From a virus: a stretch of DNA of 44,350 bases. Location: the UHGV virus genome UHGV-0187309; one strand, 5' to 3'. The translations under genes and the position numbers were made by a program. The notes under the pieces are model-generated. The model saw nothing but the letters and a program-made list of their open reading frames with translations, searched no databases and was not told the origin of the DNA. Shown here in pieces: positions 2,502 to 7,669 of this stretch. Each line of letters opens with the position of its first letter. Within the stretch, counting starts at the first letter, position 1.

Positions 2502-3059
2502 TCAGCCTTCGATCATTCTCAGCTTATAGTGTTTTCGGCAGAGTGCTGTATAACTCTCATTACCGCCGAGCTGTACCTGTTCTCCCTCTGTGACCATTTC
2601 ACCGTTCAGGAGTCTTGCATTGAAGTGCGCTCTTTTGCCGCACCAGCAGATGGTCTTGATCTGCTCAATATCGTCTGCAAGCTCCATGAGCCGCTGTGCG
2701 CCGGGAAACAGATGACTCTGGAAGTCTGTCCGCAGGCCGTAGCAGATAACTGTGATGCCATGAAAATCCACAAGATCACTGAGCTTGTCTATCATTTCAG
2801 GTGACAGGAACTGCACCTCGTCAACGATGATACAGTCATAATGCTCACCATTATAGTCAGCAAGGAAGTTTTCAGCAAACTCGCAGGGTTCTTCAAGTCC
2901 GATGCGGGATTTTAGGTTCTTCGCACCGTCCCTGTCCTCGCATCTCGGCTTCAGCAGAAGCACTTTTTTGTCTCTCTCATAGTAGTTATATCGAACCATA
3001 AGCGCATTGGCGGTCTTGGAGCTGCCCATTGCGCCGTATCTGAATATCAGTTTTGCCAT
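2502..3059 (-). CDS. tdk: Thymidine kinase
   Basis: 185 aa; P-loop YGAMGSSKT, IIVDEVQF Walker B, C-terminal Cys cluster (CWCG...C) typical of type II thymidine kinases. Confidence 0.9.
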   Translation of the reverse strand: MAKLIFRYGAMGSSKTANALMVRYNYYERDKKVLLLKPRCEDRDGAKNLKSRIGLEEPCEFAENFLADYNGEHYDCIIVDEVQFLSPEMIDKLSDLVDFHGITVICYGLRTDFQSHLFPGAQRLMELADDIEQIKTICWCGKRAHFNARLLNGEMVTEGEQVQLGGNESYTALCRKHYKLRMIEG

Positions 3060-3064
3060 CTGCC

Positions 3065-3955
3065 TTACTCCTCATCGTCCTCGTGCATGACTTCATATCG
3101 CTTGATATCTCTCTTGCTTGCAATGGAAGCGGGTTCAAGGATACCGAGAACGCGCCCGATCAGAGTGACATTGTCATATTCTGTGAATGTCATGGTATCA
3201 TACTTATCATTAAACGATACCAGACCTTCTTCCTCATATATCTTTATGTATGTACTGTTTCCAACCATGAAAGCGCCGACCTCATCGTATTGCAGCTCCG
3301 GACAGCCGGGATACTTCTCCACAAGAACAAGGTCGCCGTCATGATACTCAGGCTCCATACTGTCGCCGTTGACAGGAAACACAAGGTCTGCCTGCCGTAT
3401 TGCTGTGTTCGTATTCGGATACAGATAGATCGGTGTTCCGTTGTCCTCAAACTCCGCCCCGCCGTCAAAGCCTGCTGCAAGCCCCTTGTCGCAGAGTGTC
3501 AGTTTGATGATCTCCGGGAAGCTGCCGACAGTCTCTGCCGCTTCAAGCGAGGATAGCAGACTGTCCATTGCAAGCTGGTGCGGATACGACAGTCCACGGT
3601 ATCTCTCTACCATAGACTTTTCCTTATCAGTATAGGTATCTTGCTTGTTTTCGATGCCATATAGTTCATACAGCGTGATACCAAGTGCGTCACATAGCTT
3701 AGGAACAACGCTGAAATCCGGGCGGGTTCTTCCGTTCTCCCAGTTACTGATAGCATTTGAGGTCACGCCGATTTTTTCTGCAATCACTTTCTGATCTAAT
3801 TTTAGACGCTCCCTGTAGTATTTGATGCGACCGCCAACCGCGTGAGCGTCCTTACGGTGGGCAGGATCAGAGATGTTACTCTTAATATCCTTGCCTCCCT
3901 GTGAGACTGAGATATTCGGTTTCTTACGCTGTTTCATTACAAAGCTCTCCTTCAA
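3065..3955 (-). CDS. Phage CI/LexA-like repressor (XRE-type HTH plus S24 peptidase domain)
   Basis: 296 aa; N-terminal HTH (QKVIAEKIGVTSNAISNWENGRTRP), C-terminal S24 signature GDSMEP and a downstream Lys; divergent from the next gene with intervening promoters. Confidence 0.9.
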   Translation of the reverse strand: MKESFVMKQRKKPNISVSQGGKDIKSNISDPAHRKDAHAVGGRIKYYRERLKLDQKVIAEKIGVTSNAISNWENGRTRPDFSVVPKLCDALGITLYELYGIENKQDTYTDKEKSMVERYRGLSYPHQLAMDSLLSSLEAAETVGSFPEIIKLTLCDKGLAAGFDGGAEFEDNGTPIYLYPNTNTAIRQADLVFPVNGDSMEPEYHDGDLVLVEKYPGCPELQYDEVGAFMVGNSTYIKIYEEEGLVSFNDKYDTMTFTEYDNVTLIGRVLGILEPASIASKRDIKRYEVMHEDDEE

Positions 3956-4097
3956 GAATGTATGGGATAGTCAATCCTCAAAACGAACAAATATTCTTAT
4001 TGAAATCTGTGCAACCCTACAAAGTTTATCAAAGACTTTTCAACGCTGAAAACGTTAGAAATGCGAAATTTGGCGTAGGCATTGCATCTTTGATCAC

Positions 4098-4126
4098 ATT
4101 ATAGCACACAATCGGTGTTTTGTCAA
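4098..4126 (-). promoter_or_regulatory. Repressor promoter (TTGACA-17-TATAAT on minus strand)
   Basis: Reverse complement of 4098-4126 reads TTGACA, 17 nt, TATAAT with TGn extended -10. Confidence 0.6.
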
Positions 4127-4131
4127 TACAA

Positions 4132-4147
4132 AATTGCACTTGCAATT
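4132..4147. promoter_or_regulatory. Palindromic candidate operator AATTGCA-CT-TGCAATT overlapping the -35 of the rightward promoter
   Basis: Perfect 7 bp inverted repeat with 2 bp centre, located between the two divergent promoters. Confidence 0.5.
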
Positions 4148-4168
4148 CGTTTGACGGTGTGATATAAT
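4140..4168 (+). promoter_or_regulatory. Rightward promoter (TTGCAA-17-TATAAT) for the ImmA-like gene
   Basis: TTGCAA at 4140-4145, 17 nt spacer, TATAAT at 4163-4168; about 200 nt leader before ATG at 4370. Confidence 0.55.
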
Positions 4169-4369
4169 AGCAATGTCGGTATTCCGCCTACAGGAAAATG
4201 AGACCGAAGGCTGGTGCAGTGTGTCCGTCTTAAGGTGTGTGACAGGACAGACTGCCGGTCAGAGTACCGACAACTTCGCCATCAACCCACTTCGCCACGA
4301 TAGATATACAGAACAATAGAATGGAGCTAATGTTGGAAATACCATAAGTTGCGAAACAGGAGGGCGTAA

Positions 4370-6298
4370 ATGACTATATATCTTGATAGAGGACCGTTTC
4401 TCACCATTCCCGACAAGCTGCATTCGGGGCAGTACAGAGTGATCCGCAACCCCGACTGGCACGGAGTACTGCCGGAGATCGTGTCCTTCACCGATTTTCT
4501 CAAATGGAATTACACACTGGAGTATGGTCAGTATATCCGCAAATTGCACTACTACCACCAGCTTCCGCTGCCGTGGGTCGTTCCACAGGATGCCGAGATA
4601 GAAACTGTCATCATCGAGGAAGGCAGATATGACCGCATTGATCACAATTCCTTTGATATGTATGTGATATGCGATGTCGTGTTCGAGATGAACGGCTGCC
4701 GGCAGTGCCAGAAGTATATCGTACACGGCTTTTACTGCTCTTACGGCGGTTCAGACTTTCTGTGCGGTGCGGAGCTCTACAATGGTCAGTTTATCCGGCT
4801 GAACAATCCCTTAGATGAGTTTCTGGTTCCCATCCTTTCAAAGAAAGAATTTGCAAGCATTGCACAAGCAATCATCGACCACTACTATTCATACAAATCG
4901 AATTATCCCTGCCGCATCAATACTGCTTCAATTGCAAAGGCAATGGGTCACGATATAAAGTATGCCAGACTGTCAAAAAACGGAAATGTCAAGTCCAAGC
5001 TGATCCTGGACAAGCGGGATACGACCGTCTATGATAAGGAATACAAAGCTGTCAAAATGCGGATCGACAGTCCTACGATCCTTGTGGACGAGTCATTGGA
5101 GGAGGATGAAGCGCAGAACGCCATTATTCATGAGTGCGTTCACGCTTACCTTCACAACCTCTTCTATGAGCTGCAGAGCTACTATCGGAAAATGGTCGGC
5201 AGGAAGATGCCGGAGTTCAATGACTACTTCTATTCCAAGACGCAGCGTAGCTGCCTGAAATGGATGGAAACACAGGCAAATGCCATCCCACGCTTTATTC
5301 AGATGCCGGAGGAGCAGGCATCCGATGTCATCCTGAACTTCTTCGAGCGACTCCCCGGAGAGCCTGACTGGGACGATTACAGAGAACTGATCGACCTTGT
5401 GAAATGGAAGTTCGGAGTATCCCGCAATGCTGCGAAGAAGCGTATCATTGAGCTTGGCTGGCCGGAGGTGCGCGGTGTGTATGTCTACAACACCACAGGA
5501 TATGTTGAGGACTACGATGTAGAGCTAAGATTCCCGCAGGACTATACCTATACACTGTCATTCCGCCAAATCTCTGATGTGTTTGCATCCTGCGAGACCT
5601 TCGCAGAGCTTGTCCGTTCCAAGAAGTTCATCTATCTGGACGGTCATGTTGTGATCAACAGCGACAGGTATATCCGCAAGGAACACGGCTTAGCTATGGG
5701 CTTGACAGAGTATGCTAGACACCACATGGCAGAGTGCTGTCTGGATTTCAAGCGTATCTACGCAGAATTCGACTACAGCTATACCTATGGCGAGCTACAC
5801 AAGGATGACCTGACCGAGATCACGGCCGAAAACCGTTCGTTCAGCGATGAACAGCGAAAGAAGATCCGCATGGCAATGTATGAGATCACAGAAGAAAACT
5901 ATAAACTGACCGTTCCTTCAGATGTCAACGAATTCGGCAAGGCGGTGCGTTTCCATATGGAGAGATGCGGTCTCACCTCGGATCTGGTTGCAGACCGCAG
6001 CGGCATGGGTGTGAACACTGTCAATAAGATGCGCAGTGGCAAGAGAGTGAAGCTCGAAACAGTGCTAGCTTTTTGTGTCGCTTTGGAGCTTGAAGAGTCG
6101 TTCCGCATTGACCTTATGCAGAAAGCGAAGGTTGATTATGATATGAGCAATCCTGCCCATCGGCTCTATGTCACGATCTTTGAGCTGATGCCGAAGGCAA
6201 ATGTCTTTCAGATCAACGATCTGCTGAAGGCAGAAGGCTTTACGCCGTGGACGAGGGACTGCGAGGAAAAGAAGCGGTATGCTAAGAAAAGTATGTAA
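4370..6298 (+). CDS. Large ImmA/IrrE-like HExxH metallopeptidase-domain protein with C-terminal XRE-type HTH
   Basis: 642 aa; HExxH in IIHECVHAYLH; C-terminal HTH-like segment RSGMGVNTVNKMRSGKRVKLETVLAFCVALEL; AGGAGGG RBS. Confidence 0.8.
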   Translation: MTIYLDRGPFLTIPDKLHSGQYRVIRNPDWHGVLPEIVSFTDFLKWNYTLEYGQYIRKLHYYHQLPLPWVVPQDAEIETVIIEEGRYDRIDHNSFDMYVICDVVFEMNGCRQCQKYIVHGFYCSYGGSDFLCGAELYNGQFIRLNNPLDEFLVPILSKKEFASIAQAIIDHYYSYKSNYPCRINTASIAKAMGHDIKYARLSKNGNVKSKLILDKRDTTVYDKEYKAVKMRIDSPTILVDESLEEDEAQNAIIHECVHAYLHNLFYELQSYYRKMVGRKMPEFNDYFYSKTQRSCLKWMETQANAIPRFIQMPEEQASDVILNFFERLPGEPDWDDYRELIDLVKWKFGVSRNAAKKRIIELGWPEVRGVYVYNTTGYVEDYDVELRFPQDYTYTLSFRQISDVFASCETFAELVRSKKFIYLDGHVVINSDRYIRKEHGLAMGLTEYARHHMAECCLDFKRIYAEFDYSYTYGELHKDDLTEITAENRSFSDEQRKKIRMAMYEITEENYKLTVPSDVNEFGKAVRFHMERCGLTSDLVADRSGMGVNTVNKMRSGKRVKLETVLAFCVALELEESFRIDLMQKAKVDYDMSNPAHRLYVTIFELMPKANVFQINDLLKAEGFTPWTRDCEEKKRYAKKSM

Positions 6299-6312
6299 TA
6301 ACGGCATTTTCA

Positions 6313-6337
6313 GGAGGCTTTCGAGCCTCCTTTTTTT
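6313..6337 (+). terminator. Rho-independent terminator
   Basis: GGAGGCT-TTCG-AGCCTCC hairpin followed by TTTTTTT. Confidence 0.8.
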
Positions 6338-6946
6338 ATGCCCTGAAATATTTTCATGAAGCCCCCAGAAAAAATGGGGGCGATTTGCGTTTTTGAAATA
6401 GTTTAGAGACAGAATGTTCATAGAATATCCATTTAATTTAGATGATATGAACAAGTGAAGATGATATATCAAAGTTGAGATAAGCACAGTGCATAAAAAG
6501 CAGCCCCCATTTTTTATGTATGTAAAAGAAGATTCGGATATGTTATGATATAGACACGGTCAAGGACAGGCACCACCTTCCAAGACTGAAACACCACAAT
6601 GCCGGATGCATACGGCAGAGGATGTTCATATGATATCTGAACAGAATGCCATAGGTATACCCTGTGGTCGGAAGCCGATGTCATATGTCTACTCTGTGCT
6701 ATGCATCCGGCTATTTTTTTTGCCGCGGCATTCGGAGCATGGCAATTAGATCATTACATTTGTTAGTCAGGGCGCGCACTGGCGGACAGATGCTCATAGC
6801 GGAAATAACATCACGATTTGGAGTCTGTATAGACTGACAAGGTGTATTTCGTGTGGACATCGTCCCCTGCGTGCCTTTTTCTCTGGGACAGCAGTCGCGT
6901 TATGGGCATCTGCCGCTTGGTGTGTTCCTTGCAGAAAGGAACGATT

Positions 6947-7669
6947 ATGGAAAACGCAAATGTTCAGAATGCTGCCGCTATCACCGATAAGACCACCCTC
7001 GGCGAACTGCTTGCAATGCTTGACCTCGCTGATAAGGCAGGCAAGATGCCGACACCGAGAGAACTGTTTGAGACTGCCGGTTCGCCGATAGCCGATATGA
7101 ATGGCTGCACTCTCTTCAGCAACGGCTTCGCCATCTATCAGAATGTCACTGGGCGCACTGTTGTCTGGCTGCCGTACTGCAAGAGCTTCACCTATTACTT
7201 CGGCAAGCTCCGTGATTCCGAGAAAGACACGCTGACAGAGACCTATGAGCTGCCGGATGGATTTCTGGAAACACAGCCGTGGGTGATCGCAGTAACACTG
7301 ATCGGCGACCATCGTGTGGAGGCAAACAGCATGAACCGCACCGGCAGCCGCAAGGATACCACAGATTATGACAGCGCCGATAACGGCGATAAAGACGGTG
7401 ATGCAGAGGAGGCTTTGGCAGATCCGTATCGCAGGGCATTCAACTGGTATGACGGACGCATGGGCGAGAATCCGCAGGATGCCGTGGAGCGCAGAGAGAC
7501 ACGCGAGGAGATGCTTGCAGACATGACGGACAAGCAGCGTGAAGCCTTTATTATGTACTTCAGGGATGGTATGACGCAGGAAGAGATTGCTTCATATATA
7601 GGGGTAAGCCGTGATTCCATAAATGACAGGCTTGAAGGTGCTTTGAAAAAAGCAAAAAAATATTTTTAG
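6947..7669 (+). CDS. Sigma-70 region-4-like DNA-binding regulator
   Basis: C-terminal QREAFIMYFRDGMTQEEIASYIGVSRDSINDRLEGALKKAKK resembles sigma region 4 HTH; start at ATG 6947 (AAAGGAAC RBS) rather than the longer ORF start at 6842. Confidence 0.7.
   Translation: MENANVQNAAAITDKTTLGELLAMLDLADKAGKMPTPRELFETAGSPIADMNGCTLFSNGFAIYQNVTGRTVVWLPYCKSFTYYFGKLRDSEKDTLTETYELPDGFLETQPWVIAVTLIGDHRVEANSMNRTGSRKDTTDYDSADNGDKDGDAEEALADPYRRAFNWYDGRMGENPQDAVERRETREEMLADMTDKQREAFIMYFRDGMTQEEIASYIGVSRDSINDRLEGALKKAKKYF

Follow-up and report, generated by a model that had tools for sequence, protein, structure and literature searches.

The leader in front of the early gene for an ImmA/IrrE-like protein in a Ruminococcus prophage is a real, probably functional and lineage-specific cis-acting RNA. 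It lies in the virus genome UHGV-0187309, whose 44,350 nucleotides are referred to as the window, and its parts are listed in Table 1. That it works as a cis-acting RNA of some kind we consider likely, and control of translation or of mRNA stability is our best guess at the mechanism. The transcription start, the masking of the ribosome-binding site, the existence of a binding partner and an effect on stability are what we infer from the features described below.

The window belongs to a temperate phage or prophage of the Ruminococcus flavefaciens group, a name borne by the closest loci in their records (hosts named in related records are R. flavefaciens and Ruminococcus sp.). A sequence-only reading of the region had proposed a rightward transcript with an untranslated leader of about 200 nt. 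This agrees with the distance between the near-consensus promoter-like site and the ATG at 4370, which gives about 195 nt for a predicted start near 4174–4175. The gene behind the leader is a member of PHROG 4031, a family of unknown function; its product gives a borderline match to Peptidase_M78 (ImmA/IrrE; 22.1 bits versus a cut-off of 22) and carries HECVH, the HECxH motif being invariant. Thirteen nucleotides past its stop codon stands an intrinsic terminator (AGGAGGCT-TTCG-AGCCTCCT followed by seven T), and because this strong and conserved signal lies directly behind the gene, we regard the M78/HTH gene as a one-gene transcription unit. The terminator is kept in relatives with the leader and in those without it (L005, L025 and L026). 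A second hairpin follows at 6361–6381. After a gap of 540 nt comes an ORF of 275 aa (6842–7669, plus strand) with a sigma-70 region 4 domain (Pfam; PHROG sigma-factor families), whose product is possibly a phage sigma factor or late regulator.

On the other side, the LexA-like repressor gene (3065–3937, minus strand, ATG at 3937) encodes HTH_3 and Peptidase_S24 domains and is served by a perfect consensus promoter, TTGACA-17-TGnTATAAT (4126..4098, minus strand). The repressor gene has a leader of its own of about 150 nt (3938–4126 region, minus strand), and a repressor-side block at approximately 4008–4047 (TGTGCAACCCTACAAAGTTTATCAAAGACTTTTCAACG) is kept across loci with different promoter types. 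Beyond the repressor, the minus strand holds a thymidine kinase-like ORF (2502–3059), a SRAP-like ORF (1852–2487) and a 365-aa ORF (608–1705) with a HELGH metalloprotease-like motif, all three read from ORF translations only.

Table 1. Features of the leader and its surroundings in the window
Feature	Position	Strand	Remarks
Divergent unit	3065–4126	−	consensus promoter and LexA-like repressor gene
Rightward promoter-like site TTGCAA-17-TG-n-TATAAT	4140–4168	+	near-consensus; 17-nt spacer
−35 TTGCAA	4140–4145	+	
TG before the −10 box	4160–4161	+	
−10 TATAAT	4163–4168	+	
5′-terminal structured RNA domain, closed by P1	4174–4272	+	covariance-model match 4172–4280
P1 5′ arm UGUCGGUAUUC	4174–4184	+	inverted repeat I1
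Conserved junction strand CCGCCUACAGGAAAAUGA	4184–4201	+	fixed length in all relatives, no indels (alignment A3)
Long irregular hairpin P3/P4	4202–4260	+	variable stem, conserved loop
Apical loop UUAAGGUGUGU	4230–4240	+	GGUGUG invariant (columns G63–G68)
P1 3′ arm GAGUACCGACA	4262–4272	+	inverted repeat I1
Direct repeat 1 ACTTCGCCA	4273–4281	+	family D1, spacing 16
Direct repeat 2 ACTTCGCCA	4289–4297	+	family D1, spacing 16
Variable purine-rich spacer	4298–4345	+	indels, variable columns
Near-invariant ribosome-binding block AAGUUGCGAAACAGGAGGGCGUAAAUG	4346–4372	+	
Shine-Dalgarno (SD) AGGAGG	4358–4363	+	
Start codon ATG	4370–4372	+	
Downstream gene	4370–6298	+	642-aa protein, M78/ImmA-IrrE-like domain, C-terminal XRE-type HTH
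Intrinsic terminator	6312–6338	+	hairpin 6312–6331 and T tract; closes one-gene transcription unit

Homologous leaders were gathered by protein-based searches and by scanning viral and metagenome collections for the motif TTCGCCATCAANCCANTTCGC, and the covariance model R1 recovered locus L030, which has no exact copy of that motif. Viral, genome and metagenome collections together yielded 39 distinct full leaders in addition to L030. Model R1 scores 100.6 bits on the window, where it finds a single copy, and gives 51 strong matches among related loci. The conserved ribosome-binding block and an ATGAC start come behind the element in L030 and in each of the distinct full-length leaders. The leaders form about 6–8 types, distinguished by substitutions and by insertions in the 5′ domain that reach ~45 nt; the promoter/operator regions before them are of at least two unrelated kinds, and the leaders precede two protein types with a mutual identity of 21–24%. 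The sequence-only reading had named a lack of conservation in related phages as a result that would speak against it; about 40 distinct relatives keep the leader.

Wherever the element was found, it precedes a PHROG 4031 gene of a single Ruminococcus prophage group. No such leader was found in the close relatives of the gene at L005, L025, L026 and L028; nor was the RNA element found before 74 more distant IMG/VR relatives of the gene, in three annotated phages or in 76 unrelated viral loci, and the intergenic region had no DNA match among INPHARED phages. Since it is missing from both close and distant relatives, the leader is dispensable for the gene family and, judged by these comparisons, is an optional module of one lineage.

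Three further sequence features were noted in the course of these searches. Two of the leaderless relatives, L026 (~2455–2500) and L025 (~1160–1224), contain a stretch of ~45 nt (CATACCGGATTCGCAC..CATCAAC..AGGAGG) that resembles the P1 3′ arm plus one repeat and would be what is left of the long leader or else its precursor. In type-E relatives a perfect inverted repeat of 16 bp (ATCACGAAAATGTCAA/TTGACATTTTCGTGAT) extends across both divergent −35 boxes (L008 ~3270–3330, minus strand; L030 1700–1750; also L020, L022 and L029), likely the operator of a different immunity type; it is absent from the window. Finally, the loose pattern GGTATY-N12-AAAYGAKMC-N(5-35)-GGTGTG occurs in ~98 unrelated viral contigs (IMG/VR, L086–L161); nearly all of these matches have the same 57-nt length and none fits the RNA model; these contigs share some other conserved sequence.

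The helix that closes the 5′ domain, P1, had been noticed as complementarity between two distant segments. One of them, GTCGGTATT, lies exactly at the 4175–4183 assigned to it; the other, AGTACCGAC, is indeed complementary but occupies 4263–4271 rather than 4262–4270. The pairing extends further than had been claimed, to 11 bp (4174–4184 with 4262–4272), including one U·G. In a single sequence a stem of this kind is within chance: in shuffles of 4169–4369, with uninterrupted stems scored and G·U allowed, at least 11 bp were reached in 8% and at least 9 bp in 55%. The 5′ part of the leader (4173–4275, 103 nt, plus strand) folds with −41.4 kcal/mol (z = −4.2; none of 200 shuffles as good). Because the opposite strand folds equally well (z = −4.1), folding energy alone leaves the strand unidentified. 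The whole leader gives z = −1.8 and does not surpass all of its shuffles, and the 5′ domain has values between −4.3 and +0.3 depending on the sequence type, exceptional in only about half of the types.

P1 is therefore accepted as real on account of pairing kept across homologues and not from single-sequence statistics. In an unfitted MAFFT alignment of 37 distinct 5′ domains it is paired in 96.3% of cells, and controls with slid partners reach at most 56%. In this alignment, both sides have changed in 36 cells, compared with 15.5 ± 4.5 in shuffles, none of 500 of which attains 36. The model-fitted alignment agrees, with 96–98% of P1 cells paired across the two. At its third position the pair is C-G, U-G or U-A; U-A and C-G alternate at the inner end, type D provides a further U-A/C-G pair, and G-C/G-U is also seen in the helix. 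L083 has four transitions next to one another in the 3′ arm, and all leave the pairing intact. Independent compensatory events are few, the sequences representing perhaps 6–8 related lineages. All-against-all column covariation is swamped by this relatedness and uninformative, and RNAalifold on the MAFFT alignment recovers the P1 core alone, the inner region being misaligned between types. The covariation in homologous phages that the sequence-only reading had proposed as a check is thus present, in P1 and also in helix P4 (see below), and the long-range pairing it suggested is borne out.

These results bear on the view that the leader is recently shared, drifting non-coding sequence with chance complementarity and no function. 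Its narrow distribution among closely related sequences would agree with this, as would the near-zero folding z of several types and the chance-level helix of the single sequence. We nevertheless regard it as quite improbable: 96% pairing stands against at most 56% with slid partners, the both-side changes exceed all 500 shuffles, the conserved blocks are retained even where promoter and ORF on either side can no longer be aligned, and the spacing to the −10 box is fixed.

The kind of variation in P1 also has a bearing on the strand. G·U pairs account for 45 of ~296 P1 cells, and the other strand would read them as A·C mismatches. This indicates that the element would act as plus-strand RNA and not as a DNA feature or an antisense RNA.

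Within P1, the junction strand leading to P3 reads CCGCCUAC.GGAAAAUGA, with AAA.GA invariant. It may contain a short UUCC/GGAA hairpin, a tentative assignment, as the register of this hairpin moves between types and it is absent in type D. The P3/P4 stem is composed of GACCG/CGGUC at the base, GCAGU/ACUGC in the middle and UGUCCGUC/GACAGGACA at the top. Between types the stem sequences are unrelated (CUGCC/GGCAG, GUCUGCC/GGCAGAC, UGCUG/CAGCA, UCCUGU/ACAGGA, GUUUCG/CGGAAC and UGUCCGUC/GACAGGACA). In the MAFFT alignment the five pairs of P4 that close the loop are 87% paired, with slid partners again at 56% or less, and three of the five change on both sides. The conserved loop has 10–13 nt across types and is open in the minimum-energy fold of nearly all of them. 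A loop–loop pseudoknot between CGCCU (4185–4189) and AGGUG (4233–4237) is speculative: it is 89% compatible, shows no double changes, and a +2 slide scores equally.

As in riboswitch-type aptamers, covarying helices (P1 and P4) surround conserved unpaired stretches (4184–4201 and 4230–4240), here in few independent lineages; a recurring link to one metabolic or transport pathway across taxa, which would also mark a riboswitch, was not seen. The 5′ domain might be a sensor aptamer of a new class, responding to a metabolite or host factor at the lysis–lysogeny switch, and we think this quite unlikely. If it were one, binding at the junction and GGUGUG would act through the CUUCGCCA repeats to expose or hide the ribosome-binding site. 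Production of the ImmA-like antirepressor protease, and with it prophage induction, would then be coupled to the physiological state of the host.

The position of P1 relative to the promoter is fixed. In every leader type, exactly 6 nt separate the −10 hexamer (TATAAT or TAATAT) from the conserved GTCGG/ACTGG that opens P1, and this constant spacing spans two different promoter/operator types (6–7 nt to the helix start). P1 would therefore begin at or beside the first transcribed base, given the predicted start. 5′-terminal stem-loops are established stabilisers of Firmicute mRNAs, and the leader could be just this: P1 would block 5′-end-dependent decay (RNase J/RppH-type), and everything else would reflect shared ancestry. 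Such a stabiliser should lie at most a few nucleotides from the 5′ end of the transcript, which is where P1 is found, at the predicted +1 in every type; P1 is moreover the best-supported helix, and no alternative pairing is conserved. A simple hairpin would suffice for this task, however, and the invariant GGUGUG, the fixed-length junction and the CUUCGCCA repeats are left unexplained, so that we consider a pure stabiliser unlikely.

These repeats belong to the 3′ half of the leader. The ACTTCGCCA copies hardly vary in any relative, and this holds for L030 too, whose discovery did not depend on the motif. Both the repeats and the ribosome-binding block stay near-invariant though the ORF behind them drops to 21–24% amino-acid identity, and the HTH regions of the two downstream protein types cannot be aligned by eye. 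In minimum-energy folds of most variants, CGCC of repeat 1 pairs with GGCG just past the SD, CC with GG of the SD, UUCGC of repeat 2 with GCGAA, and AC with GU (predicted pairs 4277–4280/4363–4366, 4286–4287/4359–4360, 4291–4295/4351–4355 and 4297–4298/4348–4349 in the window). Several G residues of the SD region have an unpaired probability of at most 0.25 in such folds of most representative variants. The ribosome-binding site would accordingly be masked via the repeats in the folding model. Folding of the 3′ half (4272–4375) is not significant (z = −0.47), and covariation was not seen for the SD-masking pairs, whose bases are invariant or nearly so. Of the few substitutions in the ribosome-binding block, most affect positions without a partner in the masking model; at L052 a G-to-A change disrupts the predicted SD-masking pairing.

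As the conserved blocks are constant before proteins with different HTH regions, their partner is less likely to be the encoded protein; a host-conserved factor, the ribosome or the RNA itself appears more likely from these comparisons.

Two relatives are recombinants in which a type-E promoter and 5′ domain are joined to a spacer and ORF of the 642-aa type (L020 2314–2500 and L022 1039–1225), the junction falling within CTTCGCC, a near-invariant block. Crossovers between phage modules may take place in the leader, and recombination of this kind could keep the invariant blocks uniform without selection at the RNA level.

This raises the question of whether the conserved blocks act as DNA, the ACTTCGCCA repeats being regulator sites or recombination joints and the helix incidental. 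Near-invariance of the repeats in place of covariation would be in line with such a role, together with the location of the recombinant junctions, the equally stable fold of the opposite strand and the chance-level helix of the single sequence. We judge it rather improbable. The changes in P1 and P4 are of the RNA type, with compensatory pairs and with G·U that would become A·C on the other strand or in a cruciform. The same repeats, moreover, accompany different promoter/operators and very different downstream HTH sequences; because of this constancy they are not an immunity operator and are unlikely to be the encoded protein's own site. Nor is the repeat motif a recurring regulatory site of the phage, with four copies in 44 kb and two expected.

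A compact 5′ domain and, behind it, two identical target-like repeats shortly before the ribosome-binding site also recall leader-derived immunity RNAs. The 5′ domain would then be excised and its loop would pair with the repeats, in cis or in another transcript, to turn the gene off; GGUG of the loop can indeed pair with CGCC in each repeat. This complementarity amounts to only 4–5 nt without covariation, the related CGCCU:AGGUG pairing does no better than its 2-column slide despite 89% compatibility, and there is no match to the Rfam C4 family. Such an RNA is highly improbable here.

A structured RNA directly past an early promoter, with a strong conserved terminator behind the first gene, could alternatively be a put-like element for processive antitermination, which would let the polymerase pass 6312–6338 and reach the sigma-like and replication genes. 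Leaderless relatives (L005, L025 and L026) have this terminator too, which weakens a link between terminator and leader; the element is found in a single copy per phage, has no sequence or Rfam similarity to any known RNA, and the near-invariant repeats beside the ribosome-binding site would have no explanation. We therefore consider antitermination very unlikely.

The sequence-only reading had suggested an attenuator or another cis-regulatory RNA, and the second of these is the best reading of the leader. Attenuation finds no support in the sequence: the leader holds no terminator-like hairpin followed by a U tract and no run of T, and no terminator-like site was found in 3800–4600. The tiny ORF MELMLEIP to which attention had been drawn is present (ATG..TAA, 4321–4347); it starts in the variable spacer and is lost or frameshifted in most relatives. 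Neither it nor a 48-aa ORF at 4173–4319 is conserved in position, frame or presence, and since no leader ORF is kept among relatives in any of these respects, a leader peptide was dismissed. With small corrections to the position of the 3′ segment and the length of the helix, the original observation is essentially right.

Other identities were examined and set aside. A switch in which the P1 5′ arm pairs with GGAAAUACC (4335–4343) is significant in few types, with z near 0 elsewhere, and pairing of AGAUAUACAG (4302–4311) with the ORF start (4374–4383, repeat I2) is not significant in any type (z near 0). A mobile element with the P1 arms as terminal inverted repeats does not fit a 5′ domain that occurs once per phage and only in this context. 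The defining nucleotides of K-turn, hammerhead, T-box, fluoride-riboswitch and tetraloop-receptor motifs are not in place by eye, and Rfam gave no match to these. A search of 3900–4500 of the window against Rfam 15 at E up to 10 returned three chance-level matches (12–15 bits) outside the element or at its edge; on six related loci Rfam gave only spurious miRNA-type matches on the promoter palindrome, i.e. the type-E inverted repeat. ARAGORN found no tRNA or tmRNA gene in the window. A search of the literature on R. flavefaciens prophage lysogeny found nothing relevant.

Taken together, we favor a combined reading, plausible and held tentatively, in which the leader of the mRNA for the ImmA/IrrE-like protease–HTH protein would act in cis, as RNA, to set the amount of protein. 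The transcript would open with a folded domain of ~97 nt, whose helix P1 at the 5′ terminus, starting at or beside the first transcribed base, would shield the mRNA 5′ end. The conserved junction (18 nt) and the loop UUAAGGUGUGU would form a docking surface for a host-conserved partner. The two CUUCGCCA repeats would pair with GCGAA and GGGCG flanking the SD and damp translation initiation. The protease/regulator would thus be kept low unless the leader structure opens, the output of the ImmA-like gene being set by 5′-end protection, docking and SD damping.

Post-transcriptional control at the temperate-phage switch is well described in a few model phages of Gram-negative hosts, where it involves antisense RNAs, nut/put sites and leader-derived immunity RNAs; to our knowledge, little has been described of it in the prophages of gut and rumen Firmicutes. 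In ICEBs1, the dose of ImmA can decide induction. Here, an uncatalogued RNA with conserved structure sits at the first early gene, opposite the repressor and before a protease of the ImmA/IrrE class. If the leader controls the dose of the ImmA-like protein, it would add a layer of control to prophage induction in an important rumen fibre degrader, and it can be tested directly in the cultured strains R. flavefaciens 007c and MA2007. These carry the element in NZ_ATAX01000017.1 (locus L021) and NZ_JHXF01000015.1 (locus L023), respectively. A leader that only stabilises the mRNA or provides a joint for recombination would be an ordinary finding.

Several known systems share parts of this arrangement. 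HK022 put RNA, an RNA for processive antitermination, and the lambda nut sites likewise provide structured RNA directly after a temperate-phage early promoter, with a terminator after the first gene; the element described here has no sequence or structural similarity to them, is present in one copy instead of two, and is followed by a terminator that relatives without the RNA also possess. The c4 RNA of P1/P7 and the CI RNA of P4 are immunity RNAs that derive from the leader of the operon they control. They resemble our element as folded RNAs in the leader of an antirepressor-like early gene, with two repeated sites between RNA and ribosome-binding site, but their loop–target complementarity is long, compared with 4–5 nt here, and the Rfam C4 model does not match. 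In Aca2-type control an HTH protein binds a hairpin in its own leader. An HTH gene downstream and a conserved structure near the ribosome-binding site are common to both cases, whereas here the HTH region differs completely between two protein types with the same leader blocks.

The stabilising stem-loops of Firmicute leaders such as aprE and ermC have a helix at most 1 nt from the predicted 5′ end and a strong SD downstream, as does the leader studied here. The latter is much larger (~97 nt), has a conserved junction and loop as well as additional near-invariant repeats, and its stabilising effect is putative. Finally, orphan cis-regulatory leader motifs and riboswitch candidates ('Cis-reg; leader' in Rfam) are also located in 5′ UTRs, where covarying helices enclose conserved unpaired nucleotides, one stem varies in length through insertions, and a conserved ribosome-binding region follows downstream. 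Compared with these, our element is confined to one prophage lineage, precedes a regulatory gene of a phage instead of one for metabolism or transport, and comes without an Rfam match or a supported mutually exclusive pairing. We conclude that it is an uncatalogued, lineage-restricted structured 5′ leader of a familiar kind.
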